A stretch of DNA of 64,000 nt from an uncultured Gemmatimonadales bacterium (GTDB lineage: Bacteria > Gemmatimonadota > Gemmatimonadetes > Gemmatimonadales > Gemmatimonadaceae): contig CAWBZV010000005.1 of the NCBI GenBank assembly GCA_963793305.1, positions 416,001-480,000 of the forward strand. The letters are read 5' to 3'. The notes under the pieces were generated by a model. The model did not search any database, had not been told where the DNA came from, and saw only the letters and a program-made list of their open reading frames with translations. A program made the translations under genes and the position numbers. Below are positions 19,375 through 60,857 of the stretch, one piece after another. Every line of letters begins with the position of its first letter. Positions within the stretch are counted from its first letter, which is position 1.

Positions 19375-19392
19375 GTCTTGAACAAATGCAAC
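19375..19392 (-). promoter_or_regulatory. Regulon box 1
   Basis: GTTGCATTTGTTCAAGAC. Confidence 0.7.
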
Positions 19393-19496
19393 ATGCCGCG
19401 TCTTACGTCGACACAGTAGGCCGGTTGTGCATGATGGCGTGTTGTGACGTCACGCGACCTTGCGCCGCCTAGCGCTGACGAATATTGATGTTCCCT

Positions 19497-19680
19497 ATGC
19501 GTGCCATGCTCATTCTCGTTTGTGCTCGCCGCCGCCTGCGTGGGTCATGCCACGCCTCGGTTGGACCCCGCGGTCTACTCGAAGCTCTGCTCACCGACGA
19601 CCGATGCTGAAACCGCAAAGCGCGGCGGTTGCGTACTGAACGACCACGTCACCTCGAAGCCTGAATGGGTGCTTCCCTAG
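19497..19680 (+). CDS. Small (~60 aa) lipoprotein, masked by an extra T near 19520
   Basis: Removing one T gives MRAMLILVVLAAAC-VGHATP...C...C...WVLP*. Confidence 0.45.
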
Positions 19681-19850
19681 TCTCGCAATAGCCCCGGTGA
19701 TACTTCAGTAGGGGTAAGTTCCGAGAGGATTCGGTCGGCCTCGTCTCGCCCGGTACGGTGGTCCGTACGCGGCGGTGGACATTTGGTGCCAAATCCGACA
19801 TGGGCGTTGCCGCTCTCGCGACCTTGACCGGACATGGTAGGTTTGCGATC

Positions 19851-21017
19851 ATGCGCCTAAGCGCTATTGTCGCCGCGTTCGCCATATCGCTGCTGGCGGC
19901 GCCGCTCCGCGCACAGTCGGCCCAGGCCCCGCCAGGGTGGCCGACCTTCACGCGCCTGTTCGACGATGCCACCGATCACGACAGCATTGTCGGCGCCAGC
20001 ATCGTGCTCGTCCGCGGCGGCCGCGTCGTGGCGCACCACGAACATGGCTGGGCCGACCGCGCTCGCCACCTTCCCGTGACGGAGCGTACGATCTTCCACT
20101 ACGGCTCTGTCACCAAGACATTGACCGCCATCGCCATCATGCAGCTGCGCGATCGTCACCGGCTGACGTTGGACGATCGCGTGACGAGCTACGTTCCCGA
20201 GCTGCGGCTCGTTCACGACCCGTACGGTTCTATAGATAGCGTGACGATTCGCATGCTCCTCTCCCACGCGGCGGGTTTCCAAAACCCCACCTGGCCCTAC
20301 ACCACCGGCGCAACCTGGGAGCCCTTCGAGCCCACGACCTGGAACCAGCTCGTGGCGATGATGCCCTATCAGGAGCTCTCGTTCCCGCCTGGCTCGCGCT
20401 ACAGCTACTCGAACCCGGGGTTCATTTACCTGGGCCGCATCATCGAGCAGTTGAGCGGCGATCCTTGGGAGACCTACATCCAGAAGAACCTCTTCTCGCC
20501 ACTCGGTCTCTCGCACAGCTACTTCGGCGTCACTCCGTACTACCTCGCCGCGGACCGATCCCACAACTACACGCGCGTCCGCGACTCCTCCGGCCATGAG
20601 TTCGTCCGCGACAACGGCGCGGATTTCGACCCCGGCATCACGATTCCCAATGGCGGTTGGAACGCCCCCCTGTCCGACCTTGCCGCCTATCTCGCCTTTC
20701 TCACGGGCGCCACACCAGACAGCGTGGTCCTGGCACGATCCAGCCTGACCGAGATGTGGCGCGCACGCTATCGGACGTCCAATGACACAGTCGTGGTGCC
20801 GGATTCGATCGGCCTCTCGTTCTTCGTGCTTCACCGCGGACAGGATACGTTCATCGGCCACACGGGAAGCCAAGCCGGATTCCTGGCCTTCCTGTACCTT
20901 AATCCCGCCAGTGGTGCGGCCGTTGTCGCGACGTTCAACACGGCGAGCGAGATTCCAACGTCCACGCCGTCGGCCTTCCGGCGCATTCGGGAGGCCGCCC
21001 TCACCTTGATTCAATAG
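19851..21017 (+). CDS. Serine hydrolase, beta-lactamase/D-peptidase family
   Basis: SVTK (SxxK), YSN, HTG; signal peptide. Confidence 0.92.
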   Translation: MRLSAIVAAFAISLLAAPLRAQSAQAPPGWPTFTRLFDDATDHDSIVGASIVLVRGGRVVAHHEHGWADRARHLPVTERTIFHYGSVTKTLTAIAIMQLRDRHRLTLDDRVTSYVPELRLVHDPYGSIDSVTIRMLLSHAAGFQNPTWPYTTGATWEPFEPTTWNQLVAMMPYQELSFPPGSRYSYSNPGFIYLGRIIEQLSGDPWETYIQKNLFSPLGLSHSYFGVTPYYLAADRSHNYTRVRDSSGHEFVRDNGADFDPGITIPNGGWNAPLSDLAAYLAFLTGATPDSVVLARSSLTEMWRARYRTSNDTVVVPDSIGLSFFVLHRGQDTFIGHTGSQAGFLAFLYLNPASGAAVVATFNTASEIPTSTPSAFRRIREAALTLIQ

Positions 21018-21026
21018 GAGAGACCC

Positions 21027-24017: not shown

Positions 24018-24494
24018 TTACGGCGTCGAGTCGTGCTGGGTGTTCGCGTGCACGATCACGTGCCACCCGCGTGCATCCTTGCGCCAGATGTCGAGCCAGG
24101 CCGCGGTGAATGCGAAGTGCTGCCGAGCGCCATCGGCCGGTGTCACGACGCCACGGATGCGGGCATGGCCGATCACCGTGGCGGTGCGGCCGTCGGGTGA
24201 GATGTCGATCCGAGGTGGCTCGATCAGCGACGCTTCCGTGAACATTCTGCCCCCGAGATACGTGCCGGCTTCCGCGAGATGTTCGGCGCGCGTGCGTGAC
24301 TGCACATCGCCGTCGGCGATCACGAGCACCGTGTCCGCGTCGGCTGCCACGAAGCCCGCGGGGTCGCTCGCGAGGTGCGCATCACCCACGGCTTGTAGCG
24401 CTTGCAGAATCGCCGCGCGGTCGGCGGCTCTGTCGGGCGTAACACAAGCGACGAGAGTCATGCCAATACCTATGTACAGGATCAAGCTGCGCAT
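24018..24494 (-). CDS. NTF2-like (DUF4440/SnoaL) lipoprotein
   Basis: Lipobox LVAC; DRAAIL, WRKDARGWHVI. Confidence 0.8.
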   Translation of the reverse strand: MRSLILYIGIGMTLVACVTPDRAADRAAILQALQAVGDAHLASDPAGFVAADADTVLVIADGDVQSRTRAEHLAEAGTYLGGRMFTEASLIEPPRIDISPDGRTATVIGHARIRGVVTPADGARQHFAFTAAWLDIWRKDARGWHVIVHANTQHDSTP

Positions 24495-24564: not shown

Positions 24565-24582
24565 GTCTAGAACGATGCCAAC
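24565..24582 (-). promoter_or_regulatory. Regulon box 2
   Basis: GTTGGCATCGTTCTAGAC; 13 nt before TTGACC-18-TAGCAT on + strand. Confidence 0.7.
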
Positions 24583-25773: not shown

Positions 25774-25791
25774 GTCTTGAACGAACCCAAC
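25774..25791 (-). promoter_or_regulatory. Regulon box 3
   Basis: GTTGGGTTCGTTCAAGAC; 14 nt before TTGACG-17-TAGCAT-7-ATG. Confidence 0.75.
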
Positions 25792-28057: not shown

Positions 28058-28119
28058 TATCAGACCATGGTCCAGATCCGGCGGACGGCGTGACGCTGGG
28101 TGAAGGTGCACCGCCACGG

Positions 28120-28260
28120 GCGTCGATAGCCCTCCGCACGGGTTTCGCGGATCAGAGTCACTTCACGCGAGCCTTCACGTCGACGGTCGGTTGGCCTGCC
28201 GGTGCCGTCCGCGTGTGGTGTTTGCCGACCTCCGGGTCGTCAGCGAGCAACGTGGCATAG
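28120..28260 (+). pseudogene. C-terminal stub of an AraC regulator
   Basis: IALRTGFADQSHFTRAFTSTVG, with no N-terminal domain. Confidence 0.7.
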
Positions 28261-28306: not shown

Positions 28307-28324
28307 GTTGCGTTTGTTCAAGAC
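28307..28324 (+). promoter_or_regulatory. Regulon box 4 (upstream of SusC-1)
   Basis: GTTGCGTTTGTTCAAGAC; CATGTT at +19. Confidence 0.75.
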
Positions 28325-28469: not shown

Positions 28470-31400
28470 ATGAGACGTTAGTGGTTGGTGTACGGAGTCG
28501 CACTAGCGATGCCATGGTGTGCAACTGGAACCGCCATGGCGCAAGTGACCGGCGGTACGGTGTTGGGCCACGTCACCGATCGGTCGAGCGGTTTGTCTGT
28601 CGCAGGCGCTGTGGTGAACGTTGTCGGCACCGCGATCCGAGCGGCGACCAACGCGGACGGTACCTATCGCCTGCGCGGCGTACCCGCTGGCTCGCAGGTG
28701 CTCCGAGCGGTGCGCTTGGGCTTCGCGGCGGCGAACAGCGCTCCCGTCACCGTTGTCGAGGGTGGTACGGCGACGGTCGATCTCGTGTTGGTCCCAGCGT
28801 CGGTGACCTTGACGACGGTTCAAGTCACGGCCACCGGTCAGTCAGAGGAATCGCGTGAGATCGCGACGCTGACGCCGCAGTTTACGCCGGACTCGCTCAA
28901 CCTGGCTGCGGCACCGACCTTCGCCAGCGTGCTCGAAGGATCCGCGCCGGGCGTCCAAGTTTTTCAGCCGAGTGGGACGAGCGGAACGGGAGCCAAGATC
29001 CGCATCCAGGGATCGAGCAGCGTCTCGCTGAGCAATGAGCCGCTGCTCGTGATCGACGGCGTCGAAGCGGTCAACGAACCGAACGCAATTGCCACGAGCT
29101 TCGGCGTCGGCGGCCAGTCGACCTCGCGCATCGACGATATCAATCCGGATGACATCGCCTCCGTGCAAGTGCTCGAGGGGCCTGCCGCGACCGGGTTGTA
29201 CGGCACGGCGGCGGCGAACGGCGTGATCGTCGTCACGACCAAGCGGGGCCAGGCCGGAAAAGCCCACTGGGATGGTTTCGTCGAGAACGGCGAGCTGCAC
29301 GACGACACCAACTATCCGTTGGACTACATTCTCGTTCTCGCCAGGTGGCGGAGGGAAGCCGACGCCATCCGACTGCCCCATATACTTGACCACCACCCCG
29401 GCGGCCATGGGTGGGTGCACCATCGACAGCGTCTCCGGCTTTTCGCCACTCCGTTCGGCGACGACCCCGATCCGCGTCGGACGGCGTCAGGAGTACAATC
29501 TCTCCACCAGTGGTGGTACCGATGTCAACACGTATTACGTGAGCGGCGACTATCAGCTCGAGAACGGTACAGACCAGGCGAATCAAGTCCAGAAAACGAA
29601 TGCCCGCGCGAACTTCACCACTCGTCCGCGGTCGGATCTGTCCTTGAGCGCGAGTACGGGATACCTCGCCAGCAACACCCAATTACCCCAGAATGACAAT
29701 GACGTCCTGGGTGACCTGTCGACGGGTCTGCTGGGCAGCGGCTTGAGCGGCGCGGCCAACAACTACGGCTACTACGGCGGGGTCTATCCGGCGCTCAGCG
29801 ATCAGCTGCGCTCGTTCTCGGACATTCAGCGCTTCACGCCTTCGCTTACGGCGAACTATCAGCCCTTGTCGTGGTTGTCCGCGAACGCCACGGGTGGGTT
29901 CGACCTGGTGAATCAGGATGATCAGCAGACGGTTCAGCCGAACGTCGTACCGTTCGCCTTTCTTCCGCTCGGCTTCAGATCGCGCAACCGCTTGGAGTTC
30001 GAGAACTACACGATCAACTCGAACCTGAGCGCTACCGCGCAACTCCCGGCCGACATTGCCTCGACTACCACAATGGGTGGCAGCTGGCGTCGCAACCTGT
30101 TCACTGGCAATTACGCAGCGGGCTACGGCCTGACGGGCGGGTCGAACTCGTTGACCGCCGTGTCACAGCTGATCACGGTCAGCGAGGTGAACCAAGACAA
30201 CCGGACGATCGGCGGATTCGTTCAGCAGCAATTCAGCTGGCGCAGCAAGCTGTATCTCACCGGTGGCGTCCGCCTGGACAAAAACAGCTCCACCGGATTC
30301 GCGGCGGGAACGACCGCCTATCCGACTGGCAGTCTTGCCTACGTGCTCAGCGACGAGCCGTGGTTTCCGAAAGGCGGCGTCATCTCCGCGCTCAAGTTAC
30401 GTGCCGCGGTTGGACAATCGGGACTGCACCCGGCCTTTCTCAATGCGCTGACGTACAAGAACCCGGTCGCTGCCGTCACACCGCTCGGCAACTCGACGGC
30501 GGCGTTCACCGCCGGCAATCCGGGGAATCCGAACCTCAGGCCCGAGCGCACCACCGAGATCGAAACCGGGTTCGACTTGTCGCTGCTGCACGATCGTCTG
30601 ACGATCAACGCCACGTACTTCGACAAGCACACCCAAGACGCGCTCATTCAACAGGAGCTCGTGCCGTCACTTGGCGACACCAACTTCCGTTGGATCAACG
30701 TTGGCAAAGTGAGAAATCGCGGCGTCGAGCTCGATGCGTCTGCGACGCCGATCGATATACGCGCCGTGACCTTCACGGTCCACGGCAACTTCTCGACGCT
30801 CGAGAATCGGCTCCAAGAGCTGGGAGCGGTCAACGGGCAGCAGATTCAACCCATTCTGACCGGCTTCGGTGGCAACACGCAAGAGTTCGCGCAGGGCTTC
30901 CCCCTCGGAGGCTATTGGCAACTCCCCTACACGTACGCCGACAAGAATCACGACGGGATCATCGAGCCGAACGAGGTCACGCTGACGAGCAACACGCCCA
31001 GGTACATGGGCACGCCAACCCCGACCGAGCTTGCCTCGCTCTCGCCACAGCTCACGGTGTTCAAGGTTATTCGACTGAGCTCCCTGTTCGATTTCCAGGG
31101 CGGGCAAAAACTGTTCGATGCCACGGCGCTATACCGGGACGCGGTCATCGGCAACGGCAAGGCGGACTATGTCAAGGGAGATCTCGCGGGCGAGGCCGCT
31201 GTCATTGCCTCGCAACAGGATGGCACCTTCGCGGGATACTTCCATGACGCGACATTCTGGAAATGGCGGGAGGCGGCCATCTCGCTGCTCGTTCCAACCC
31301 AATGGGCGCACCGCATCTACGCCCGCGGCGTCACCCTCACATTTGCCGCGCGCAATCTGCGCACGTGGACGAAGTACCCGGGCCTCGACCCGGAAACGTC

Positions 31401-31491
31401 ATTCCTCGGACAGGACAACTTCATCGTCGCCGATTTTCTGACGCAGCCACCCGTCCGCTACTATACGTTCCGCGCCACTCTCAACTACTAA
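28470..31491 (+). CDS. SusC/RagA-family TonB-dependent receptor 1 (TAG at codon 4; +1 frameshift near 29328)
   Basis: Carboxypeptidase-like N-domain, PLLVIDG, INPDDI...GPAATGLYGTAAANGVIVVTTK, NPNLRPE, C-terminal aromatic residue; split across two ORFs. Confidence 0.88.
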
Positions 31492-35888: not shown

Positions 35889-35906
35889 GTCTTGAACGAT
35901 CGCAAC
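35889..35906 (-). promoter_or_regulatory. Regulon box 5
   Basis: GTTGCGATCGTTCAAGAC. Confidence 0.75.
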
Positions 35907-35931: not shown

Positions 35932-37035
35932 TCAGAACGACTCCGCGCGGAGCTCCTCGAAGGCCCGCGGGATAGCGAAGGTGAGAAAATAGTTCTTGAA
36001 ACTCCACTGTCGGCCAAAGTCATTGCCCGCCATCTCGGCTGCGAAGCGCGAGAGGTCTACGCGTTTTTTCACAGAGTCGACTTGATTGGCGTCGACAAAT
36101 CCTGCGCGCATGGCGGCACGGACCTGGGACAGGAGCGCGTCGATCAGCGCCTTTTCGGAGCGGACGTAGTCCCAGGATGACAGCACGGGGCCATGACCGG
36201 GAACGATCACTTTGACGCCGTCCATTTGTTCGAGGCGGGCGAGCGATTCGCTCCACGCACGAAAGTGCGACAAGATGCCGTAGGGGACCGGCGCGATCAC
36301 CAGGTCGCCGGTGATAAGCGTGCCCTGTTCCGGGATGAACGCGACGACGTCCCCTATCGTATGGCCGACGTACTTCCGCAGCTGGACATGGCGATCGCCA
36401 AGGTCGAGGTCTAGGTCGCCTTCGAACGTCAGCGTCGGTTGGACCAGGCGTGTCTCTCGCCACGTTGGCCATTCCAGCGCCGCTTGGTCCAAGCCGGCCA
36501 TGTCGTGCGCGGCTTCTTCCGGCGTGTAGGGCGAGCCGTCGGGGTCCTTCCCGGTCGCTTGTTGCTGGATCACCTTCTTGCGCTGTCCGGCGACCACCTC
36601 GGGCGTGAGCGCGAGCTGTTGCGCGAGATACCATGGGTTGCGCCACACCGAGTAGTCCCGGGTCGCGCCGCTGGCGATGATCTCGACGCCAGGGAATTGC
36701 TCGGCGTACACCTGATTGCCCGCCATGTGGTCCAAGTGCCAGTGCGTGTTGACCACGTACTTGACCGGAAGAGATGTCTTCGTCCGAATCCACTTGACGT
36801 GCTCGCGCGACAAGCGCACGCTCGGGACATCCACGACCAGGACGGCCTTCGAGCCGATGATCACCGTGGTGTTGCCATCGGGAAAGAAGTCGGTCGTGTT
36901 GTTCGGCGTGAATGCGAAGATACCCGGCGCAACTTCGGTCGGCGCCTGCGCGCACAGCTGGGGCGCGGGCAGCAGCGAGCGCACCAGGAGGGTGACCGCG
37001 ATCGAGGCGCGGCGTGGCGGGGCAAGAGAGAGCAT
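35932..37035 (-). CDS. Metallo-beta-lactamase-fold hydrolase
   Basis: THWHLDH, GHT, TGD, PGHG. Confidence 0.9.
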   Translation of the reverse strand: MLSLAPPRRASIAVTLLVRSLLPAPQLCAQAPTEVAPGIFAFTPNNTTDFFPDGNTTVIIGSKAVLVVDVPSVRLSREHVKWIRTKTSLPVKYVVNTHWHLDHMAGNQVYAEQFPGVEIIASGATRDYSVWRNPWYLAQQLALTPEVVAGQRKKVIQQQATGKDPDGSPYTPEEAAHDMAGLDQAALEWPTWRETRLVQPTLTFEGDLDLDLGDRHVQLRKYVGHTIGDVVAFIPEQGTLITGDLVIAPVPYGILSHFRAWSESLARLEQMDGVKVIVPGHGPVLSSWDYVRSEKALIDALLSQVRAAMRAGFVDANQVDSVKKRVDLSRFAAEMAGNDFGRQWSFKNYFLTFAIPRAFEELRAESF

Positions 37036-37066: not shown

Positions 37067-37084
37067 GTCTTGAACGTCCGCAAC
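37067..37084 (-). promoter_or_regulatory. Regulon box 6
   Basis: GTTGCGGACGTTCAAGAC; ATG 37035 at +32. Confidence 0.8.
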
Positions 37085-37089: not shown

Positions 37090-37107
37090 GTTGGGTTTGT
37101 TCCAGAC
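37090..37107 (+). promoter_or_regulatory. Regulon box 7
   Basis: GTTGGGTTTGTTCCAGAC; TAGGTT at +19, ATG 37139 at +32. Confidence 0.8.
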
Positions 37108-40011: not shown

Positions 40012-40520
40012 CGCACGCGCTGTTCGTCCACACCGACGTCCTCGCGCCGGAGGACGGTTGGACGCCGGTTGAGCCGCTTCGCGCGCTGGGTCCGATTCGC
40101 TCATTCGTGTCGGGAGATCCGGCGAGCGAGCGTATACGGATCGCGTATTTCCGACGAGAGGCCGATGGGATGCTCGTGGCGAAGGTCTGGTTCGGGCCTG
40201 ACGCCGAGGGGCCGCCTGGACACGCGCACGGTGGCGCGATCGCTTCGGTGCTGGATGACGCGATGGGTGCGGCGGCGTGGGCGGCGGGCCGCCGCGTGGT
40301 GACGTTGACGCTCCAGGTGCGTTTCCGGGCGATGGTGCCGTTACAGGTGGTGGTGATAGTGGAGGCGCTCGTGCGCGCGACGCACGTCGGTCGACTGCAT
40401 CTGACCGCGCAGTTACGCGACAGCGGTGGGGTGCCATTCGCCGAGGCATCGGGGGGCTTCGTGCGGATCGCGCTGGAGCAGATCGGGCTGTCGCGCGCGC
40501 AACTGGTCGATCGCACGTGA
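40008..40520 (+). CDS. PaaI-family thioesterase
   Basis: EGPPGHAHGGAIASVLDDAMG. Confidence 0.9.
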   Translation: MTHALFVHTDVLAPEDGWTPVEPLRALGPIRSFVSGDPASERIRIAYFRREADGMLVAKVWFGPDAEGPPGHAHGGAIASVLDDAMGAAAWAAGRRVVTLTLQVRFRAMVPLQVVVIVEALVRATHVGRLHLTAQLRDSGGVPFAEASGGFVRIALEQIGLSRAQLVDRT

Positions 40521-43500
40521 CGGACCAGGATCGACTCCAGCGCGCCGTCGAGGGGCGCTATCGTCTCGTTCGCCGGCTCGAGGGTGGCGGGATGTCGACC
40601 GTGTATCTTGCGCGCGATGAGGCGTTCGACCGCCAGGTGGTGATCAAGGTGTTGCCGGTTGAGCTGGCGAGCACCGAGGCCATCGAACGGTTTCGGCAGG
40701 AGATCGACCTGGTGGCGACGCTCTCGCATCCGCAGGTGGTCCCCGTGCTCACGGCGGGACAGGTCGATGGGCTTCCGTATTTCGTCATGCCGTATGTCGA
40801 CGGTGAGTCATTGCGGCGCCGGCTGCATCGCGGACCTCTGTCGGTTCGCGAGACCGTCTCGGTCCTGGTCGATGTGGCGCGCGCCCTGGCGGCCGCGCAT
40901 GCGCAGGGCATCGTCCACCGTGACATCAAGCCGGACAACATTCTCCTGACGGCGCAGTCGGCGGTGGTCACCGACTTCGGGGTGGCGAAGGCGCGCCAGC
41001 GCGCCGGTCGACCGCGCGTCGGCGGCGCCGCGGGTGTGCAGACCAGCGAAGGCACGTCGCTGGGGACGCCGGCCTACATGGCCCCTGAGCAGATCGCGGG
41101 GAGTTCGGATGTCGATGCTCGCGCCGACCTGTACGCCCTGGGTGTCGTGGCCTACGAGATGCTAGCCGGACGGCCGCCCTTCAACGACGCGTCGCCGCGG
41201 AAAGTCCTCGCCGCACATCTGGTGGAGACGCCACCGCCCCTCTCGAGCGGCCGGCGAGACGTCCCTCCGGGTCTCGAGCGCCTCATCGTGCGGTGCCTGG
41301 CCAAGGACCCTGGCGACCGGCCGCGATCGGCCCTCGACATCGTCCGGGCGCTGCAAGAGTCGGAGACGATCGCCCAGCCCGGACTTCGGTTCACTGCTAT
41401 AGATCTTCGCTCCGCGGTGCGCGGACTGGGGCGTGCACCCCTGCTCACGGTGTACGCGCTCGTCTGTCTCGCGCTGGGTGCGGGCTCGACCATCGCCGTC
41501 TGCGGGGCGATCGATCAGGCGCTCATTCGCGAGCTGCCGTTCGCGCATGCCCGTTCGCTCGTCACGGTCTACCGCACGACACCACAGTTCGACCGTGGGC
41601 CGTTTTCCGCGCCCACGTTCCTGGATCTCGCTCGCTCGCTGCACCGAATCGACCACTTGGCGGCCATCGACTTTGTCTTCGGTGTGCTGGTGCTGCCGGG
41701 TGACGCGGTGCGGGTCAGCATCCGTCGCGTCACGGAGAACCTGTTCTCGACGCTCGGCGTCACCGCCCAGGCGGGGCGGCTCTTCGATAGCAGCGATGCC
41801 CAGCGGGCCGTGCCCGTCGCCGACATCAGCGATGCCCTGTGGCGATCGCGTTTCGGCGGCGACCCATTGATCGTTGGTCGATCGGTCGATCTCGACGGCC
41901 GTTCGACGGTGATCCTCGGGGTGCTGCCTCGCGGCTTTCGTATTCCGCGTGCCGCTGTCGAGCTCGAGGCGGACATCTGGACCCCTCTCGTCTTCACGCC
42001 CCACGAGATCGCCCAGCGCCGCGCGAACAGCTTGAGCCTCCTCGGTCGTCTCGCGCCGGGTGCCACGGTATCCGCTGCGGAACGCGAGCTCCGCGATCGG
42101 ATGGCGGACATCACGCGGATCTATCCGGAGCTTCGTGACGAATCGATCCGTGTCGCCCCGATGCGCACCGATAGCGCCGCTTTTGTCCGGGGGTCGTTGA
42201 TGCTGCTCTTGGGCGCCGCGGGATTGGTGCTGGTGGTTGCAACAGCGAACGTGGTGTGCTTGCTGCTGGCCCGCGGTGTCCAGCGCCAGCAGGAGTTCGC
42301 GATCCGATCAGCCCTCGGCGCGTCACCCTGGGCCGTGGTTCGTCCGGTGCTCGCGGAGAGTGCGCTCCTGGCGGTTGCTGGGGTTCTCGTGGGAATCGCC
42401 TTGGCGTCGGCGGGTGTCCACCTCACCGACGCCCAAATCGCGGGTGATCTGCCGCAACTCGCCGGCCTCGCGCTCGGCGCCCGGATCATTCCGTTCGCCC
42501 TGGCGACCGCGGTACTCCTCGCGGTGCTCGCCGGCGTCCTGCCGGCCTGGTACGGCACGCGAGTCCTCGCCCAGGAAGCGCTTGGTGGCGCGCGGGGCAG
42601 TAGCGTTGGCCGCAGGCGAGTTCGGGCGCTCAATGCGCTCGTCGTTGCCGAGGTCGGCGTGGCGCTGGTACTGACGATTGCGACGGGCCTTGTGCTCAAG
42701 GCGTTCCTGCGGCTCAACGACCAGGATCCCGGCTTTGATCCAGCGCCCGTGTTAACCCTCGAAGTGGCGGTACCCGCATTGGCGTATGCCAACAGGAGCG
42801 CGGTGTCGCGTCTGCTCGAGCCGGCCCTCGACGCGGTGGCGCGCGTTCCAGGCGTCGCGGCTGACGGGGCTATCTCTATCCTTCCTTACCGGAATTGGGG
42901 CGCCAATTCGAACGTTCGCTATGAGGGCCAGCCGAACGACACGCCGACACGCTTACCGATCGTCGAAATGCGAGACGTGACGCCCGGCTACTTTGGGGTC
43001 ACCCATCAGCGGCTGATCGGCGGTCGCCTTCTTCGCGATGCTGACGCCACCGTCGACGCACCTGACGTTGTCGTCGTGAACCAGGCGCTCGCGCAGCGGG
43101 ACTTCCCGGGACAGGACGCAGTCGGCAAGCGCTTTTATGACTCTGACACGACGCTCGCGACCATCGTCGGCGTCGTCAGTACGATTCGCAACATGGGCCC
43201 GATACGGGTCCCCACGCCCGAGATGTACTTCCCCTACAAGCCGGGCGACGATAAGACCGCGTTCAATGTGATGATTCGAGTCCAGCGCGGCGACCCGGGG
43301 GCGCTCGGCGCGGCGGTCAGTGCCGCGATTCGTGCCGTCGATTCCCGGACGGCCATCACGCATGTGCAGACCATGCGAGAGGTCATGCGCGACAGTATTC
43401 GGACGCAGCGCTTTTTTCTGAGCGCCATCGTCTTGTTCGCATTGATCGCCGTCCTCCTCGCTGTCGCCGGGTTGCACGGTCTCCTGACCTTTACCGTGGC

Positions 43501-43798
43501 GGAGCGTGCGCGCGAGATCGGCATTCGCACGGCGCTGGGGAGCTCCCCGTTCCGGACGGTCGGCCTCGTCGTGCGTCGGGGACTCCGTCTCATCGCCGGC
43601 GGCGTGGTCTTCGGAATTGTCGGCGCGAGTCTGGCCGCTCGTGTATTGCAAGCGATGGTGTACGGCGTCGAGTCAATGGACCCTGCTCTGTGGCTCGTCG
43701 CGACGGTCGGATTGATGGGGATGGGTTTGCTCGCGTGTCTCCTGCCGTCCTGGCGCGCGGCGGCGGTCGATCCCGTTACCGCCATGCGCATCGAGTGA
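40517..43798 (+). CDS. Ser/Thr protein kinase fused to MacB/FtsX duplicated (ADOP-type) permease
   Basis: GGGMSTV, VVIK, HRDIKPDN, DFG, YMAPE; then DLRSAVRGL...LALGAG, ANVxxLLLAR..EFAIRSALGAS, EIGIRTALG, DPVTAMRIE in one frame. Confidence 0.92.
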   Translation: MTDQDRLQRAVEGRYRLVRRLEGGGMSTVYLARDEAFDRQVVIKVLPVELASTEAIERFRQEIDLVATLSHPQVVPVLTAGQVDGLPYFVMPYVDGESLRRRLHRGPLSVRETVSVLVDVARALAAAHAQGIVHRDIKPDNILLTAQSAVVTDFGVAKARQRAGRPRVGGAAGVQTSEGTSLGTPAYMAPEQIAGSSDVDARADLYALGVVAYEMLAGRPPFNDASPRKVLAAHLVETPPPLSSGRRDVPPGLERLIVRCLAKDPGDRPRSALDIVRALQESETIAQPGLRFTAIDLRSAVRGLGRAPLLTVYALVCLALGAGSTIAVCGAIDQALIRELPFAHARSLVTVYRTTPQFDRGPFSAPTFLDLARSLHRIDHLAAIDFVFGVLVLPGDAVRVSIRRVTENLFSTLGVTAQAGRLFDSSDAQRAVPVADISDALWRSRFGGDPLIVGRSVDLDGRSTVILGVLPRGFRIPRAAVELEADIWTPLVFTPHEIAQRRANSLSLLGRLAPGATVSAAERELRDRMADITRIYPELRDESIRVAPMRTDSAAFVRGSLMLLLGAAGLVLVVATANVVCLLLARGVQRQQEFAIRSALGASPWAVVRPVLAESALLAVAGVLVGIALASAGVHLTDAQIAGDLPQLAGLALGARIIPFALATAVLLAVLAGVLPAWYGTRVLAQEALGGARGSSVGRRRVRALNALVVAEVGVALVLTIATGLVLKAFLRLNDQDPGFDPAPVLTLEVAVPALAYANRSAVSRLLEPALDAVARVPGVAADGAISILPYRNWGANSNVRYEGQPNDTPTRLPIVEMRDVTPGYFGVTHQRLIGGRLLRDADATVDAPDVVVVNQALAQRDFPGQDAVGKRFYDSDTTLATIVGVVSTIRNMGPIRVPTPEMYFPYKPGDDKTAFNVMIRVQRGDPGALGAAVSAAIRAVDSRTAITHVQTMREVMRDSIRTQRFFLSAIVLFALIAVLLAVAGLHGLLTFTVAERAREIGIRTALGSSPFRTVGLVVRRGLRLIAGGVVFGIVGASLAARVLQAMVYGVESMDPALWLVATVGLMGMGLLACLLPSWRAAAVDPVTAMRIE

Positions 43799-43873: not shown

Positions 43874-44461
43874 TCAGGTGGTCGTGAATCGTTCGGGGTG
43901 CCAGTCGTACTCCATGTAGCGCGCGGTGTCGCGGGCGATCTCGGGCCCGAGGAGTCGGTGGACGACATGCAACGCGCCATCGATGCCGGCCGATACTCCG
44001 GCCGCGGTGATGCAGCGGCCGTTGTCGACGAAGCGCCGATCCGCGTGCACGCGTGTGCGGGGCGCGGCGACGCGCAGTCGGTCGACGGCGCCATACCACG
44101 TCGTCGCCTCGAGACCGTCAAGGAGTCCAGCGCCGGCGAGCAGGAACGCGCCGGTGCATACTGAGAGCACGACCTCGGCGGTGCCGGTGACGTTGCTCAG
44201 CCAGGACGTGAATCGGGCGCTCTCGAGGAGTGGCTCGGCGCCGCCACCGGGGAGCACGACAATGTCCGGTCGCGGACAGGTCTCGATGGTGTACTCGGGG
44301 AGGATGCGCATGAACCCTTGGCTCACGATGGGGCCCGGGCGATCGGCTACGGTGTAGACCTGGAATGCCCGACCGTTATCGGCGGCGGCGAATACTTCCC
44401 CTGGCCCCGCGAAGTCGAGCAGCTCGGCCTCATCCCAGACGCAAATCGCGACGCGGCGCAT
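43874..44461 (-). CDS. DJ-1/PfpI family protein
   Basis: ELLDFAGP, PGG, SVCTGA, AGVSAGID. Confidence 0.92.
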   Translation of the reverse strand: MRRVAICVWDEAELLDFAGPGEVFAAADNGRAFQVYTVADRPGPIVSQGFMRILPEYTIETCPRPDIVVLPGGGAEPLLESARFTSWLSNVTGTAEVVLSVCTGAFLLAGAGLLDGLEATTWYGAVDRLRVAAPRTRVHADRRFVDNGRCITAAGVSAGIDGALHVVHRLLGPEIARDTARYMEYDWHPERFTTT

Positions 44462-44537: not shown

Positions 44538-44555
44538 GTCTTGGACGAGTCGAAC
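44538..44555 (-). promoter_or_regulatory. Regulon box 8
   Basis: GTTCGACTCGTCCAAGAC; TACCGT at +19. Confidence 0.6.
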
Positions 44556-45895: not shown

Positions 45896-46507
45896 CTACT
45901 TGCTCCATGGCGGCGTGATGCCGTTTATCCTGGCGTAAGCGATCAGCTGGCCCAGGTGCTCGTGTAGGTCGTCCGTCATACCGATGGTCGTTTGCGTGAT
46001 CGTTGCCTGTTGGCCAAACCAATCGACGGAACCCACCGCGGCCGGGTCCACCGGGGCGAGCGTCGCCTTGGCGTACGCGTAGCTGTCGTTCAGGTGCTTG
46101 ATCACCGCTTCCTTGGTGGGATTGGCCTCGAATTTCGCCAGCGCTGCGTCCGTGTTGGGAACTACTGAAGACGGCTTGGCGCCATAGGCCATAGGTGCGT
46201 ACAGGTAATATTCACTTGCGACGTGCAGGAATACGGCGCCGACGGAGCGCACGCCCTTTTCTGGACTCCACGAGTACTTGTCGGCTGGAAACGCGTTCGC
46301 CAGCGCGAGGAACTTCGTGTGCGCGTGATCGAGGTCGGCCAGGAACTCCTTCTTCACATCTGTCGGCCCGTTCGCGGCTCGTGCGGCCGATTGCGCGGCG
46401 AGCGGCGGCGCGGGATGCGTGAACGCGATGGCTAAGGCGACGGTCGCGGCGCGGGTGAGGGAGGCGTGCCGGCGTGCGGTGGGCATGTCGCGCATAAGAA
46501 TCCTCAT
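45896..46507 (-). CDS. Secreted DinB-family protein
   Basis: VRSVGAVFLH, HEHLGQLIAYAR..GITPP; start may be 46486. Confidence 0.85.
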   Translation of the reverse strand: MRILMRDMPTARRHASLTRAATVALAIAFTHPAPPLAAQSAARAANGPTDVKKEFLADLDHAHTKFLALANAFPADKYSWSPEKGVRSVGAVFLHVASEYYLYAPMAYGAKPSSVVPNTDAALAKFEANPTKEAVIKHLNDSYAYAKATLAPVDPAAVGSVDWFGQQATITQTTIGMTDDLHEHLGQLIAYARINGITPPWSK

Positions 46508-46575: not shown

Positions 46576-46593
46576 GTCTTGTATGAACACAAC
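46576..46593 (-). promoter_or_regulatory. Regulon box 9
   Basis: GTTGTGTTCATACAAGAC. Confidence 0.7.
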
Positions 46594-46629: not shown

Positions 46630-46647
46630 GTTGCGTCCATGCTAGAC
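46630..46647 (+). promoter_or_regulatory. Regulon box 10
   Basis: GTTGCGTCCATGCTAGAC; CATGAT at +19. Confidence 0.65.
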
Positions 46648-48889: not shown

Positions 48890-48907
48890 GTTGGAATCGT
48901 ACAAGAC
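48890..48907 (+). promoter_or_regulatory. Regulon box 11
   Basis: GTTGGAATCGTACAAGAC; CAGGAT at +19, ATG 48939 at +32. Confidence 0.8.
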
Positions 48908-50858: not shown

Positions 50859-50876
50859 GTTGGAATCGTGCAAGAC
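50859..50876 (+). promoter_or_regulatory. Regulon box 12
   Basis: GTTGGAATCGTGCAAGAC. Confidence 0.75.
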
Positions 50877-50980: not shown

Positions 50981-50998
50981 GTTGGGTTTGTTCCAGAC
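50981..50998 (+). promoter_or_regulatory. Regulon box 13 (upstream of SusC-2)
   Basis: GTTGGGTTTGTTCCAGAC; CACATT at +19. Confidence 0.75.
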
Positions 50999-51089: not shown

Positions 51090-54000
51090 ATGGGTGTAGT
51101 CCTTGTCCGTACCGGACGGATGGTGACGATAGCCGTGCTGTGTGCGGCTGCCGTCACGCGCATTGCGTCCGGCCAAGAATCACAACGCATTACTGGTCAG
51201 GTCCTCGATCTCGACGCAAAGTTCCCGGTGCCATTGGTGCGCGTCGCGGTCCCCGGTACCACATTGGGGACGCTGACGACCGACAGCGGGAGGTTCACGC
51301 TGCGGAACGTGCCGGCGGATGCGAAGTCGATCGAGGTCCGTCGCATTGGCTACCTCGGGGTGACAGTGCCGCTGGTGCGAGGGCAGACGGACTATACGAT
51401 CTCCCTCAAGCAAGATGTGCTGCACCTCGAGCAAGAGGTGATCACGGGGGTCTCGACGACGACGTTGAGTAAGACCGCGGCGACCTATGATCCGGTGATC
51501 ACCTCCGAGCAGCTGAACGGTGCGCCGGCGGCAACGATCGAAAACGCGCTGCAAGGCAAAGTGGCTGGCGTCCAGATCGACCAGAACTCGGGCGCGCCGG
51601 GTGGCGGCATGCAGGTGAATGTTCGCGGCGTGACGTTGATCTTTGGCAACACGGAGCCGCTCTATGTCGTCGACGGCGTCCTCGTGTCGAATGCGGTGTT
51701 TGCGACCGGCCTCAATGCCCTCTCCGGGGCCGGCAGTCAGAACGGCACCGGTCAGCCAGGCAACCAGGACCAGTCGGTGAACCGCATCGCCGACCTCAAT
51801 CCAAACGACATCGAATCGATTCAGGTCTTGGAAGGCGCCGCCGCGGCCTCGATTTACGGCAGCAAGGCGGCCGCCGGTGTCATCGTCATCACAACGAAGA
51901 AAGGCTCGGCCTCGAAAGTCGCGATCGACGCCACCCAGCGGTTCGGCACGTACAATCTCGAGCACGAGCTCGATGTGCGGCACTTCACCCTCGCGCAGGC
52001 CGACACCATGGGCGCGGCCGTGGGAATGACTTCCGCCCAGGTGCTGTCGAACTTCGACGGGTGTAAGGGATTCTGCGACCTCCAGAAGTCGCTCTACGGC
52101 GGCGGAGAGCTGTCCAACGAAAGCGATGTCACCGTGCGTGGCGGCTCGGAGAACACGACGTACTTCATGTCTGGCCTCACGAAGTATGACAATGGTGCCC
52201 AAATCAATACCGGTTACAACAAGCAGTCGCTTCGCGCGAACGTCAACCAGACGATCTTCAACACGATCAGCCTGGCCGCCAATCTCGCTTATACGTCGTC
52301 CTTGACGCGGACCGGCGTCAACGGGAACGATAACTTGGGCATCGCCGGGTACGACGTGTTGTCCTACACACCGTCGTGGTTCTGCATGAACTGCCACAAC
52401 GCCAATGGGTATGTCAACAACCCGTTCGGCTCGGCCAACGCCTTCCAGGATGCATTGTTGATCCAGACGCCGGACGAGGTCAATCGCACGACGCTGGGCG
52501 GTGCGCTCAACTGGAAGCTGTTCACGGCGACGAAGCAGAGCCTCGAGCTGGCGGCGGTCGGTGGTGCCGACTTCGTGAACGAGCACGTGCAACTCTACAT
52601 GCCACCGAATCTCCAGGTCGAGCACTCGGCGCTCGTCACGACCCCGGGTGTGAGCACCAGCAACCAAGGTTATGATCGGTTGTCGAACTGGTCCGTGAGC
52701 GTCATCCACCGCTGGACCCCGAGCTCTCTTGTATCCGCGACGACCTCGATCGGCATCACGCGCAACAAGGACGCCACGTATCAGACGGTCGACAACGCGA
52801 TTGGCTTGGTGCCGGGTGCGACGGCGTTTACGAGCGGCGCGGCGCTCACTCCGTTCTACCAACAGACCGAGTCGAATGACGCAGGCTACTATGTGCAGGA
52901 GCAGCTGCTGCTCTTCAATGAACGGCTGACGCTCACCGGTGGAGTCAATGCCGAGCGGAGCTCGAACGATGGGGCGGTCAATAAGCTGTTCCCGTATCCC
53001 AAGATCGCTGGCTCCTTCCGCGTCTTCACTGGTGACAACGAGTTGAAACTGCGCGCCGCCTACGGTCAGACGGGAACGCTGCCGATCTACGGCGTGAAGT
53101 TCGATTCGGCGAAGACGACCAACTACAACGCGATTACCGGCGCGGCATTCGGCCAAACACTGGGTGACCCCAACGTTCGCCCGGAGACCAACACGAGCAT
53201 CGAAACTGGTGCCGATCTCGCACTGTTCAAGGGACGCCTGAGCCTCAACGCGACTCTGTTCCAGAAGCGCGTCACGAACCTGCTCCTCACCGAGTTCATT
53301 TTGCCGTCCTCGGGATCCCTCGCGGCCTGGACCAACGGCGGGCAGTTGACGAACCAAGGGATCGAGCTGGCCCTGAACGCTACGCCGATCACGACGAAAC
53401 AGTTCTCCTGGATCACGACGGAATCCTTCTCTCGCATTTACGATCGCGTCGACAATCTCCCGATTCCGGGGTTCGCCGCCGGCAATTTCTTCGGGTACAA
53501 CCCATTCGGCGGCTACTTCATTCAGCCCGGCGCGTCGGTGAACGAGGTCTATGGGTATCCGAATGCCGCGACCGCGGCGTCGCAGACGCTGACGCAGTTG
53601 GGGAACATTGCACCCGCGTACACCGTTAGCTTCGGTCAGGATCTGAACTACGGACCGCTGCACCTGCACGCGTTCTTCGATTGGCGCGTCGGGCAGGTGG
53701 TCGCGAACCTCACGCAGCAGTACTACGACTTTGCGTTCGGTGGCTTGGGCGTCGGGATCCAAGGCAACCTGACGGACACGCTCGGCACCAAGGCGAGGAT
53801 AGCGGCCGTCGACAACGGCCAGACGGTGTACACGGAGACCGCCTCGTTCCTCAAGCTGCGCGAGTTGACGGCGAAATTCGACTTGCCGCAGGCGTTTGTG
53901 AGTCGAGTCGGCCAGGGATTTCTCCGGTCCGCGAGTCTCGAGCTCACCGGGCGCAACCTGCTCACATGGACGAAGTATCCTGGACTCGATCCCGAGGTCT

Positions 54001-54095
54001 CGAACTTCGGCTTGCAGAGTTTTGGCCGTGGTCAGGACGTGACGCCGTATCCCCCGACTCGCAGCTACTTCGTCTCCTTAGACCTGGGCTTCTGA
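51090..54095 (+). CDS. SusC/RagA-family TonB-dependent receptor 2
   Basis: GGAGG RBS; LQGKVAGV, PLYVVDG, LNPNDIESI..GAAAASIYGSKAAAGV, RPE, YPGLDPEV, C-terminal F. Confidence 0.95.
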   Translation: MGVVLVRTGRMVTIAVLCAAAVTRIASGQESQRITGQVLDLDAKFPVPLVRVAVPGTTLGTLTTDSGRFTLRNVPADAKSIEVRRIGYLGVTVPLVRGQTDYTISLKQDVLHLEQEVITGVSTTTLSKTAATYDPVITSEQLNGAPAATIENALQGKVAGVQIDQNSGAPGGGMQVNVRGVTLIFGNTEPLYVVDGVLVSNAVFATGLNALSGAGSQNGTGQPGNQDQSVNRIADLNPNDIESIQVLEGAAAASIYGSKAAAGVIVITTKKGSASKVAIDATQRFGTYNLEHELDVRHFTLAQADTMGAAVGMTSAQVLSNFDGCKGFCDLQKSLYGGGELSNESDVTVRGGSENTTYFMSGLTKYDNGAQINTGYNKQSLRANVNQTIFNTISLAANLAYTSSLTRTGVNGNDNLGIAGYDVLSYTPSWFCMNCHNANGYVNNPFGSANAFQDALLIQTPDEVNRTTLGGALNWKLFTATKQSLELAAVGGADFVNEHVQLYMPPNLQVEHSALVTTPGVSTSNQGYDRLSNWSVSVIHRWTPSSLVSATTSIGITRNKDATYQTVDNAIGLVPGATAFTSGAALTPFYQQTESNDAGYYVQEQLLLFNERLTLTGGVNAERSSNDGAVNKLFPYPKIAGSFRVFTGDNELKLRAAYGQTGTLPIYGVKFDSAKTTNYNAITGAAFGQTLGDPNVRPETNTSIETGADLALFKGRLSLNATLFQKRVTNLLLTEFILPSSGSLAAWTNGGQLTNQGIELALNATPITTKQFSWITTESFSRIYDRVDNLPIPGFAAGNFFGYNPFGGYFIQPGASVNEVYGYPNAATAASQTLTQLGNIAPAYTVSFGQDLNYGPLHLHAFFDWRVGQVVANLTQQYYDFAFGGLGVGIQGNLTDTLGTKARIAAVDNGQTVYTETASFLKLRELTAKFDLPQAFVSRVGQGFLRSASLELTGRNLLTWTKYPGLDPEVSNFGLQSFGRGQDVTPYPPTRSYFVSLDLGF

Positions 54096-55873: not shown

Positions 55874-55891
55874 GTTGGCTTTGTACAAGAC
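55874..55891 (+). promoter_or_regulatory. Regulon box 14
   Basis: GTTGGCTTTGTACAAGAC; ATG 55923 at +32. Confidence 0.75.
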
Positions 55892-58396: not shown

Positions 58397-58570
58397 CGTC
58401 AGCGATGTCGAAGTGGAGATGGTGAGGGGCGTCCTCGCCGCCAAGGTAGCGCGCTTCGTCCTGCTGATTGTGCGGGTTTCGTGTCCGCTGTGCGCAGTGT
58501 GTGAAGGCGCGGTTCGCGCGCGCCACTCGAGAGCGCAACCGACATGCGCTAGCATTGCCGCGACGCGCTT

Positions 58571-58588
58571 GTCTTGCACGAACACAAC
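58571..58588 (-). promoter_or_regulatory. Regulon box 15
   Basis: GTTGTGTTCGTGCAAGAC; 13 nt before TTGACG on + strand. Confidence 0.75.
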
Positions 58589-58637
58589 GTCGCTTCGTGC
58601 CTTGACGCGGCCATTTCTTTGGCGCTAAGTAGCGGCC

Positions 58638-59423
58638 ATGCGATCCAGTCCTGATTGGTGCGTGACGCGACGGGAGTTCGTCGGTGACTCAATGCGAGCG
58701 TTTGTGGCGCTGCCGCTGCTGCGTGCGGCGACGCTCGCTCCGTTTCGGCGAGTGGCTGACGGCCGTCTCGCGGCGCGTCCGTTGGCGGGCGTGAGTGATC
58801 CGCTGCCGGCCGGTGTGCATACGCTGCCGGCGCCCGGGGCGCGTGCCTCGGTCCTCGTCGTGCCGTCGAACGTGTCGGCCGGGCATCCGGCTCCGCTCGT
58901 CCTGATGCTCCACGGCGCGACGATGGACAGCACTGAATCGCTGGATGCGATGCGGGAGGTGTGCGAACACCGGGGTGTGGTCTTGCTCGCCCCCAGCTCC
59001 ACGGGGATGACGTGGGACGCGATTCGTGGGGAGTTCGGCCCGGATCTGGGGGAGATCGATCAGCAATTGGCGCAGGTGTTCGCGCACTGTGTGATCGATC
59101 CCCTACGCCTGGCGATCGCGGGGTTCTCCGATGGGGCGTCGTATGCGGTATCCCTCGGTCTCATCAACGGCGATCTGTTCACGCATGTCATTGGATATTC
59201 GGCGGGGTTCCTGATTCCGGGCCCACGGCACGGACATCCGCGGGTCTTCATGGCGCATGGCACGCGCGATTCGATCCTTCCGATCGACCGGTGCGGGCGG
59301 CGTATCGCGGCGGATCTTCGTGCGGATGGATACGCGGTTGATTTCGCCGAGTTCGATGGCGACCATGAGATTCGTCCGGAGATCGTGCGGCGGTCGATGG
59401 AGTGGTGGCTCGGGACGCCATGA
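58638..59423 (+). CDS. Phospholipase/carboxylesterase, possible Tat export
   Basis: TRREFV; LHGA, GFSDGA, HGTRD, GDH. Confidence 0.88.
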   Translation: MRSSPDWCVTRREFVGDSMRAFVALPLLRAATLAPFRRVADGRLAARPLAGVSDPLPAGVHTLPAPGARASVLVVPSNVSAGHPAPLVLMLHGATMDSTESLDAMREVCEHRGVVLLAPSSTGMTWDAIRGEFGPDLGEIDQQLAQVFAHCVIDPLRLAIAGFSDGASYAVSLGLINGDLFTHVIGYSAGFLIPGPRHGHPRVFMAHGTRDSILPIDRCGRRIAADLRADGYAVDFAEFDGDHEIRPEIVRRSMEWWLGTP

Positions 59424-60565
59424 TGCGACTGCTGTCGCTTTGTGCGCTGGCGTTGCTCGGCGCGTCGGCGGGTCTGGCGCAGAGCGCCGGGACCGTGTCG
59501 CTCGCGCCGGATTCCCCGCGCTGGGCGTTGACCTCGGGGGCGACGGTGACGACCTATCTCGGGCGCCGCTCCTTGTTCATGGCTGGGGGGCTCGCGACGG
59601 TCAAGGATTTCGTTTTGCGGGACGGCGTGGTCGATGTGGACGTGGCGACTCCGGCGGCGCGGGGGTTCTTCGGGTTCGAGTTTCGCGTCGCGGACAGCGG
59701 AGCGAACTCGGAGCTGGTGTATCTCCGGCAGCACCAGTCGGGGCTGCCGGACGCGATGCAGTACACGCCGATCCTCAACACCGGTCGCAATTGGCAGATC
59801 TACAATGGACCGGGCTTCACGGCCCCGGTCGACATTCCGCGCAACGTGTGGTTCCACCTGCGCCTGGTGGTGGAAGGGCCGCATGCCAGTCTGTACGTCA
59901 CGGACATGCGCACGCCGGCGCTGGTCATGAGCGACTTGAAGAGCGGCGTGCAACGCGGTCAAGTGGCGTTGTGGGTGCTCGAGGGGGCGACGTACTTCAC
60001 GAATTTCACTGTGCGGTCGACGCCCGATGCGCCGTGGGAGCGGCATTTGCCGCCCATGCCGTCGGGGACGTTGGTGCATTGGAGCTTATCGCCCGAGTAT
60101 GACGCGCTCGCCCGGGACCTGGAGCATCCGCTGTCGCGGGCCGAGGAGGACAGCATGGCGTGGCAGCCCGTCGACGCGGAGGCGCCGGGGTTCGTGGTCA
60201 TCAATCGGTATCGCGTGAGCCCTCATGTGAACCGGACGTACGAGCATGATTTCTCGAGACGGTTGGAGCCGCAGCCGGGTACAGCCGTGGTATACGCGCG
60301 TACGACGATCGAGTCGGACCGCGCTCTGGTGAAGAAATTGGCGATCGGATATAGTGACGACGTTAGCGTCTTTCTCAACGGGCAGATTCTGTATCGGGGG
60401 CGCAGCGCGCAGAATTTTCGTGATCCGGAGTTTCTGGGGATCATGAGCGCTGACGATGACGCGGTCTACCTTCCGTTGCGACAGGGGAGCAACGAGCTCG
60501 TGCTCGCGGTGAGCGAGCTCGGTGGGGGGTGGGGGTTCATCTGCCGACTGACGGATATCGAGTAG
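59420..60565 (+). CDS. Secreted concanavalin/DUF1080-like protein with extra C-terminal domain (paralog C)
   Basis: RGFFGFEFR, VYLR, LVMSDLK, ALW; GYSDDVSVFLNG, LRQGSNEL. Confidence 0.75.
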   Translation: MMRLLSLCALALLGASAGLAQSAGTVSLAPDSPRWALTSGATVTTYLGRRSLFMAGGLATVKDFVLRDGVVDVDVATPAARGFFGFEFRVADSGANSELVYLRQHQSGLPDAMQYTPILNTGRNWQIYNGPGFTAPVDIPRNVWFHLRLVVEGPHASLYVTDMRTPALVMSDLKSGVQRGQVALWVLEGATYFTNFTVRSTPDAPWERHLPPMPSGTLVHWSLSPEYDALARDLEHPLSRAEEDSMAWQPVDAEAPGFVVINRYRVSPHVNRTYEHDFSRRLEPQPGTAVVYARTTIESDRALVKKLAIGYSDDVSVFLNGQILYRGRSAQNFRDPEFLGIMSADDDAVYLPLRQGSNELVLAVSELGGGWGFICRLTDIE

Positions 60566-60839
60566 TCGCGCTCAGCGCGTGCGTCGCGAGTCAGTTGACC
60601 CCCGCAAATTGGCCGGCCAGACCGACCGCCGCGGGGCGCCGGTGGGGGTTGATGGTCCGTCGGGGTCCGGATTCGTCATGCTGGGTGGGGGTGGCATCCC
60701 GACAGCGGATGGGATTCCGCTGGATCAGCTGGCGACCATTCGACGTGTGGCCGAGTACGGGCTCATCCGGCTGGCGCACGATTGGCGCTAGGTCGGTTCG
60801 TTCACGACGGCAGCACGCACCGACGCCCTTCAGTTTGAT

Positions 60840-60857
60840 GTTGCGATCATTCAAGAC
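60840..60857 (+). promoter_or_regulatory. Regulon box 16 (upstream of SusC-3)
   Basis: GTTGCGATCATTCAAGAC; CAAGTT at +19. Confidence 0.75.

Follow-up and report, generated by a model that had tools for sequence, protein, structure and literature searches.

What reads a short, non-palindromic DNA motif that recurs between the genes of an uncultured Gemmatimonadales bacterium, and which genes does it control? The motif lies in a 64,000-nt stretch of DNA, hereafter the window, which corresponds to C5:416001-480000 (contig C5) of a 26-contig, 5.72-Mb assembly (genome G000). Positions below are leftmost coordinates in window numbering unless prefixed C5, and gene families are given by Pfam. A first, sequence-only reading had listed 16 copies of an 18-bp box and had proposed an activator of the AraC/XylS type behind them. 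We conclude that the box is likely the operator of AraC_308, a 308-aa AraC-family protein that is predicted to act as a class II activator of about 50 promoters, all located in one 186-kb island that overlaps the window.

The 16 listed sites were all real. The pattern GTTGNNWTYRTNCHAGAC matched 13 of them exactly, whereas 46630 carries one mismatch and 37067 and 44538 carry two each; in 100 dinucleotide-preserving shuffles of the window, exact matches numbered zero in every one. With up to two mismatches allowed, the window gave 19 matches against 0.78 expected, and the three additional ones (15448, 47093, and 58001), which fall within genes by our own gene calls, look like chance matches. A position weight matrix (PWM) of 20 columns, trained on the 29 exact copies in the genome, recovered at a threshold of ≥16 bits precisely the 16 listed sites and no others in the window. 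Aligned copies gave the asymmetric 20-bp consensus AYGTTGnnWTYRTnCAAGAC, holding about 30 bits of information. Both in the 29 and in 49 aligned copies, the conserved columns run from -2 (A, then T/C) to +17, the last base of the motif, and the flanks beyond these limits had no information content. The box has no internal direct repeat at a spacing of 10 to 11 or 21 bp, and its core is not palindromic. By our own codon-statistics gene calls, each of the 16 copies is intergenic, as had been stated, and the same bias held across the whole island: 52 of 55 island sites of ≥16 bits were intergenic in an island that is only 17% intergenic (binomial, 3e-36). A search for AYGTTGNNWTYRTTCAAGAC in genome contigs was uninformative: the stretches returned, at least 119, came from unrelated taxa and held a single match each.

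The count of 16, correct for the window, turned out to be an effect of where the window ends. Across the assembly there are 29 exact copies, and 49 sites reach a PWM score of ≥20 bits (hereafter strong sites), all of them within C5:435375-609649 and none elsewhere in the 5.72 Mb. Twenty of the 49 strong sites do not fit the exact pattern and are thus independent of the set on which the PWM was trained; these also lie in the island without exception, although the island makes up only 3.2% of the genome. Outside the box stretch, 12 sites reached ≥15 bits, 10 of them in coding DNA and the other two without a -10 element. The first 19 kb of the window are free of boxes because the box-bearing region begins inside the window. 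Homology to G001, a genome of the same genus with 91 to 93% identity, stops on the left flank at C5:432106, so that the left edge of the island is at 16107 (C5:432107). The match to the right flank, including tRNA-Pro, follows only ~11.6 kb further along the same G001 contig, so that G001 lacks C5:432107 to ~618060 (186 kb) at this locus. The boxes thus lie in a strain-specific island, whose G+C content is the same as that of the rest of the genome. A chimeric assembly was considered and found unlikely: both flanks are syntenic with one G001 contig, and parts of the island, among them the two boxes upstream of the receptor gene SusC-2, recur at 99 to 100% identity in contigs from the runs of other studies, so the region is not an assembly artefact.

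The boxes stand at a fixed distance from a promoter-like element. Among the 49 strong sites, position +37 was A in 29, position +41 was T in 30, and position +40 was T in 20, against a background of 17.5% each (binomial P ~1e-10), which places a -10-like hexamer, (T/C)AnnTT, at box coordinates 36 to 41, 18 nt past the box end. Native promoters of this genome have a TAnnTT -10 and a weak T-G-G signal (a TTG-type -35) 17 bp upstream of it. In the box, the -35 slot is taken up by positions 13 to 18 (AAGACa), with the other 15 bases directly upstream of it. When the transcription start is taken ~7 nt after the -10-like hexamer, the box centre falls near -41. Class II sites, as described in the excerpted text of PMC12052159, are forward sites that overlap the -35 and are centred between -36 and -55. 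By that description, the box fits a class II site, being in forward orientation, overlapping the -35, and centred at about -41 from the predicted start. Many boxes end 22 to 39 nt before the start codon, as expected of leaderless transcripts. About one tenth of all genes in the genome with an upstream gap of ≥80 nt have a TAnnnT that starts 14 to 12 nt before the start codon, so leaderless transcripts appear to be common in this organism. Three boxes stand in reverse orientation 50 to 66 nt before a divergent gene, and one reverse box lies 170 nt before the AraC_308 gene itself; whether such reverse boxes act as class I-type sites is speculation.

The gene for AraC_308 (C5:586758-587684) lies in the island, outside the window. 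Its C-terminal domain of ~100 aa matches HTH_18 (6.4e-23) and HTH_AraC (7.5e-13) and holds two helix-turn-helix (HTH) motifs. Residues 179 to 279 align to the structure chains of RamA, Rob, SoxS, MarA, and AraC, with RamA, Rob, and SoxS as the nearest solved structures to the DNA-binding domain by sequence. No NCBIfam equivalog was found for the protein at cut-off; ramA_TF, RobA, SoxS, and MarA scored far below it and matched the DNA-binding domain only. The N-terminal part had no Pfam match even at E = 1. The corresponding part of a homolog in G112, a genome of another genus, showed faint Cupin_7, AraC_N, and AraC_binding matches (E 0.006 to 0.024), and that of AraC_308 itself was nearest to AraC_binding clusters in a language-model search of ESM Atlas features (0.97). 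An AlphaFold model built from a four-row alignment had a mean pLDDT of 47.8, with ~30 over residues 1 to 174, and was confident only over 175 to 282. A paralog 72% identical to AraC_308 (C5:573810-574731) is located directly behind the strong box C5:573535. In the window, the only trace of such a regulator gene is a remnant on the + strand (28096-28227) encoding 44 aa of the second HTH motif, 57% identical to AraC_308, which sits between PD40 genes and the box of the receptor gene SusC-1, where G005, of the same genus, has an intact AraC gene. The intact AraC gene at 4562-5323 encodes an unrelated family member and lies outside the island. Other regulators encoded in the island are six LytTR response regulators, a tandem orphan OmpR-type pair, an ECF-like sigma factor, and BlaI-, PadR-, and GntR-type proteins.

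The link between this regulator and the box rests mainly on their co-location in other genomes. A box was found within ~1 kb of the gene for an AraC_308 relative in G005, G112, G248, and G070 and in two metagenome contigs. In G005, a gene for a 68% identical homolog is followed by a one-mismatch box and then by SusC/D, and the PD40 genes are syntenic. The 39% homolog of G112 is flanked by three boxes within 1 kb, which precede DinB, DJ-1, and alpha/beta hydrolase plus DUF4440 genes, families that are boxed in the window too; across that 214-kb contig there was no other site of ≥16 bits. G248 and G070, from another family, have homologs of 35 to 36% identity followed by a box and then a YceI-like gene, and in G000 YceI and the AraC paralog are likewise neighbours, both with boxes. 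The two metagenome contigs encode AraC_308 orthologs of 93 to 96% identity with boxes beside the gene. Taken over 29 homolog loci of the phylum outside G000 (107 kb), four held seven sites of ≥15 bits, where ~0.2 would be expected. In a maximum-likelihood tree of 31 homologs, five box-linked AraC proteins and one with a weak box fell on one side of a branch (support 89/81), and 24 boxless homologs fell on the opposite side. The promoter geometry was also retained, with 8 of 10 boxes in other genomes keeping A37 and T41 and the other two shifted by 1 nt. An AraC homolog was found at 1e-18 in 84 of 401 genomes of the phylum (a tally that includes G012, flagged as unpublished), and exact boxes never exceeded two per genome among 40 close relatives or 400 sampled phylum genomes. 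A search of five relatives with the two-mismatch pattern was too noisy for counting weak boxes, with 55 to 119 matches per genome against 35 to 68 for a reversed control, mostly in coding-like DNA.

In the mechanism that we propose, AraC_308 bound at the box would bring in RNA polymerase as a class II activator, its single DNA-binding domain reading the invariant blocks GTTG and CAAGAC with the two HTH motifs. Because the -35 slot is poor, the box promoters would depend on the activator, and a small molecule sensed by the N-terminal domain could turn on the whole island. The earlier proposal of an AraC/XylS-type activator is supported by the fixed -10 spacing, the -35 overlap, the AraC subfamily beside the box in other genomes, and the single tree branch, whereas the MarA/SoxS type to which it compared the activator does not fit, since the regulator has an N-terminal domain and is more than a DNA-binding domain. 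Similarly, genes for uptake, hydrolysis, and stress do carry boxes, as had been suggested, but the scope is that of one island with about 50 promoters.

Several observations weigh against this assignment. By a crude definition the island has 107 transcription-unit starts, and only 35 of them are preceded by a same-strand box at ≤400 nt; 19 boxes had no such unit, and at least two, perhaps up to five, face no forward gene, although several of the 19 reflect gene-calling errors (SusC-1, the AraC paralog, and a truncated M61 gene). The paralog carries, in the assembly, a 1-nt insertion near C5:574524 that puts its two HTH motifs in different frames, which may leave one intact AraC gene for about 50 promoters. 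A protein with an AraC-type N-terminal domain usually binds as a dimer to two half-sites, whereas here each promoter has a single conserved site. The recognition helices are nearly alike in box-linked AraC proteins and boxless homologs, which leaves the specificity unexplained, and the branch that unites the box-linked group has only moderate support. Finally, G383:C73 and G386:C29, from another family, share an identical strong box (32 bits, position ~5001) after an arginase gene, which in G383 precedes a MacB/FtsX permease gene, and no AraC gene was found ≤5 kb from this box in either genome.

Could the protein bind the box and yet act differently? Some AraC-family members repress, and if AraC_308 were mainly a repressor or a dual regulator, the box would be an operator that occludes the -35. 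As the -35 slot lies under the box, a protein bound there could keep RNA polymerase out, and the reverse box that travels with the AraC gene, 170 nt before it, would suit autoregulation. However, AAGACa replaces the native T-G-G/TTG-type signal in that slot, and promoters that depend on an activator typically have such a poor -35. The location of the box and its forward orientation moreover fit class II activation as outlined in PMC12052159, and we regard predominant repression as unlikely. It is quite unlikely, too, that another island regulator reads the box, be it the OmpR-type tandem pair (C5:481992-483472) or one of the six LytTR proteins. The pair stands directly behind a strong box (C5:483542) and its best match in five same-genus genomes is ≤39% identical; OmpR/PhoB-type sites can also replace the -35, and LytTR genes are frequent in the island. 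But in G005, G112, G248, and G070 the boxes adjoin the gene for the AraC homolog and no gene of these families, LytTR paralogs are also common in the box-free DNA outside the island, and the box lacks the internal direct repeat at 10 to 11 or 21 bp. Matching the box to the known consensus sequences for sigma-54, ECF, sigma-32, LytTR (AlgR-like), and PhoB/PhoP-like regulators led us to reject these readings, as orientation or repeat spacing did not fit and the comparative data favour AraC.

That the 3' part of the box falls in the -35 slot would also agree with an extended -35 of an alternative sigma factor, for which a 426-aa ECF-like sigma (C5:528645-529925), encoded in an operon behind the box C5:526399, would be a candidate. 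Twenty conserved bases, however, far exceed what contact with sigma region 4 needs, the -10 resembles that of native housekeeping-type promoters, the boxes of other genomes adjoin AraC genes and not sigma genes, and paralogs of this sigma with 30 to 44% identity are encoded elsewhere in the genome without boxes; we consider a sigma element very unlikely. Some features would instead suit a non-regulatory repeat spread in the island, be it a recombination site, an element resembling attC or REP, or a mobile promoter: homology between G000 and one of the metagenome relatives begins exactly where the reverse box that lies 170 nt before the AraC gene has its outer edge, a gene fragment of 317 bp occurs twice within the island together with its box, and the back-to-back pair 37067/37090 forms an 18-bp inverted repeat. 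Yet conservation ends at -2 and +17, the core is not palindromic, and most copies are solitary rather than paired. With strand and distance tied to gene starts and the -10, and with the box kept at equivalent promoters of other genera, we give a mere repeat hardly any credence.

Class II activation by AraC_308 would place the box near several known systems. The MarA, SoxS, Rob, and RamA marboxes are likewise asymmetric forward sites of ~20 bp over the -35, each bound by one domain with two HTH motifs, and they serve many dispersed promoters of uptake, efflux, and stress genes. The marbox consensus is AYnGCACnnWnnRYYAAAY, however, and the box coincides with it only in the leading AY and in AA near the 3' end. 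AraC_308 further differs from these proteins in its ~175-aa N-terminal domain, in the far higher information content of the box (~30 bits), and in the restriction to one island of a member of the Gemmatimonadota. Island-confined master activators of the AraC family with sites overlapping the -35 are represented by ExsA (type III secretion genes), ToxT, and HilD/InvF, whose regulons comprise ~10 promoters serving one machine. As in those systems, an activator encoded in a horizontally variable island would drive the promoters of that island, but here there are about 50 promoters of heterogeneous scavenging and stress genes over 186 kb, and no virulence function is evident. With the classical AraC, XylS, and RhaS, the candidate shares a length of ~300 aa, apparently the two-domain layout, and, in relatives, a regulator gene beside its target promoter; these proteins bind as dimers to paired half-sites, whereas here one conserved site is found per promoter.

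To our knowledge, very little is known about gene regulation in Gemmatimonadota. A literature search, partly swamped by unspecific text matches, turned up no publication that deals with an AraC regulon or the box motif in the phylum. As far as that search shows, the operator and the regulator subfamily are undescribed, while class II control by an AraC-family protein is in itself ordinary; what stands out is how large the regulon is, how very similar its sites are, that it is strictly confined to one strain-specific island, and that it includes the re-promotered duplicates described below. The box and AraC_308 give the phylum a concrete, testable regulator-operator pair and a predicted promoter architecture that includes frequent leaderless starts, and they could serve as an inducible expression system in a group with few genetic tools.

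Second copies of genes that occur elsewhere in the chromosome make up part of the island. Three island segments are 89 to 91% identical to chromosomal copies, with nucleotide homology ending 5 to 16 nt before the start codon; their upstream DNA is unrelated to that of the chromosomal copy and contains a box in two of the three. The receptor gene SusC-3 belongs to a 90.6% identical second copy of a native SusC/D pair on contig C3, and the homology ends at the ribosome-binding site. The native pair has no box, so the claim that all SusC receptors carry one applies to those in the island but not to the genome. Between G000 and G001, by contrast, which are equally diverged, orthologous intergenic DNA can be aligned over its full length, at 92%. 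We read these patterns as second copies of chromosomal genes whose upstream DNA was apparently replaced by box promoters. The best paralog of the 142 island proteins lies outside the island for 79 and inside it for 22, and 41 have none; internal duplication was rejected as the origin of the island, given that only those 22 have their best paralog inside. As a separate observation, a 317-bp duplicate of 94% identity (C5:515785-516099 and C5:570683-570995) comprises the 5' part of a gene for a metallo-beta-lactamase (MBL)-fold protein and its box, the second copy being truncated.

Among the sites visible, the regulon is local in relatives (one to four promoters beside AraC) as against about 50 in G000, a contrast that offers a clean natural setting in which to ask how regulons expand and how genes that were acquired or duplicated come under control. 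Tentatively, and with more doubt than confidence, we suggest that the island might be a depot of second gene copies (SusC/D, MacB-type permeases, and peptidases) re-promotered with one AraC box, which would amount to a roughly tenfold growth of the regulon in one locus. If so, the bacterium could build a switchable shadow gene set by promoter replacement and not by evolving sites across the chromosome.

In the window, most boxes point at a gene start, as the sequence-only reading had noted: 13 of 16 have a same-strand start ≤300 nt downstream, and the exceptions are 37090 (615 nt) and 19375 and 25774 (no same-strand gene). The gene labels given there were partly correct. Pfam confirmed the three SusC/TonB receptors, the MBL hydrolase, the M1 peptidase, DJ-1, and DinB; the GNAT label found no match, and DUF1080-like (E 3.5e-4) and LVIVD (E 0.012) are sub-threshold matches only. 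The three receptor genes are preceded by four boxes on the + strand. That of SusC-1 (28307-28324, PWM 31.8) lies 160 nt before its N-terminal open reading frame (ORF; 28485), and the gene is split over two overlapping frames (plug, 28485-29696; barrel, 29407-31491), by either a frameshift or an assembly error. SusC-2 (51120-54095) has two upstream boxes, a distal one (50859-50876, PWM 32.7) and one 121 nt before the gene (50981-50998, PWM 30.3), and the box of SusC-3 (60840-60857, PWM 33.4) is ~135 nt before a start near 60993. The remaining + strand boxes are 46630-46647 (one mismatch, PWM 20.6), 199 nt before a 165-aa gene without a Pfam match; 55874-55891 (PWM 28.7), 290 nt before a 66-aa ORF; 48890-48907 (PWM 32.6), whose spacing of 22 nt to a CarboxypepD_reg-domain protein (48930) suggests a leaderless transcript; and 37090-37107 (PWM 28.7), 615 nt from an M1 peptidase start (37723) with a small ORF between.

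On the - strand, the box 24565-24582 (PWM 30.3) is 70 nt before a DUF4440 gene (24018-24494), 46576-46593 (PWM 30.1) is 80 nt before a DinB_2 gene (45896-46495), and 58571-58588 (PWM 31.2) is 174 nt before the gene for a 668-aa protein, the one with the faint LVIVD match. The box 35889-35906 (PWM 34.4) precedes by 75 nt the 233-aa gene with the faint DUF1080 match, which is followed by an esterase gene. Two weak boxes, with two mismatches and a PWM score of 18.2 each, are 37067-37084, 31 nt before the MBL-fold hydrolase (35932-37035), and 44538-44555, 76 nt before DJ-1/PfpI (43874-44461). The other two - strand boxes have no same-strand target. The one at 19375-19392 (PWM 35.3) has no same-strand gene called downstream and no -10 at the expected place, and a beta-lactamase-fold/amidohydrolase operon begins ~400 nt off on the + strand; the one at 25774-25791 (PWM 33.9) stands reversed 41 nt before a PD40 gene (25833, +). 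The boxes 37067 and 37090 are back to back, 5 nt apart, and the inverted repeat that they form is imperfect. Divergent pairs of this kind are also found at 46576/46630 and at C5:523508/523547, 577580/577638, and 593310/593364.

The island as a whole encodes four SusC/D-type systems, seven MacB/FtsX permeases, many peptidases of the M1, M13, M16, M28, M61, S9, S41, and DUF5700 families, esterases, MBL-fold hydrolases, DinB, DJ-1, YceI, SRPBCC, protocatechuate genes, and several regulators. Directly to its right lies an 11.5-kb integrative mobilizable element (C5:618061-629552) with genes for FtsK/SpoIIIE, NikA/MobC, a MobA/VirD2 relaxase, HTH_17 (excisionase-like), and a tyrosine integrase. This element adjoins tRNA-Pro(GGG) and has a 48-bp direct repeat of the tRNA 3' end at its borders, and G001 has a different small element at the same tRNA-Pro. 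Integrase, relaxase, and terminal repeat are found only on this adjacent element and not on the 186-kb island, and no further copy (≥30 nt) of the 48-bp repeat was present in C5:420000-618000. Between the last box and the mobile element, C5:612919-617904 holds DUF6941, DUF4258, TIR-domain, RES-domain, and NikA-like genes in a cluster that resembles a defence or toxin-antitoxin patch. At the island's left edge, 16119-17455 comprises a full RibD_C gene, a tRNA-Ile with anticodon TAT (16842-16915, - strand), and then a 99-aa C-terminal RibD_C fragment; in relatives, the RibD_C gene is located elsewhere. Within the window, 40517-43795 encodes a 1093-aa fusion of a Ser/Thr protein kinase domain with a MacB/FtsX-type permease.

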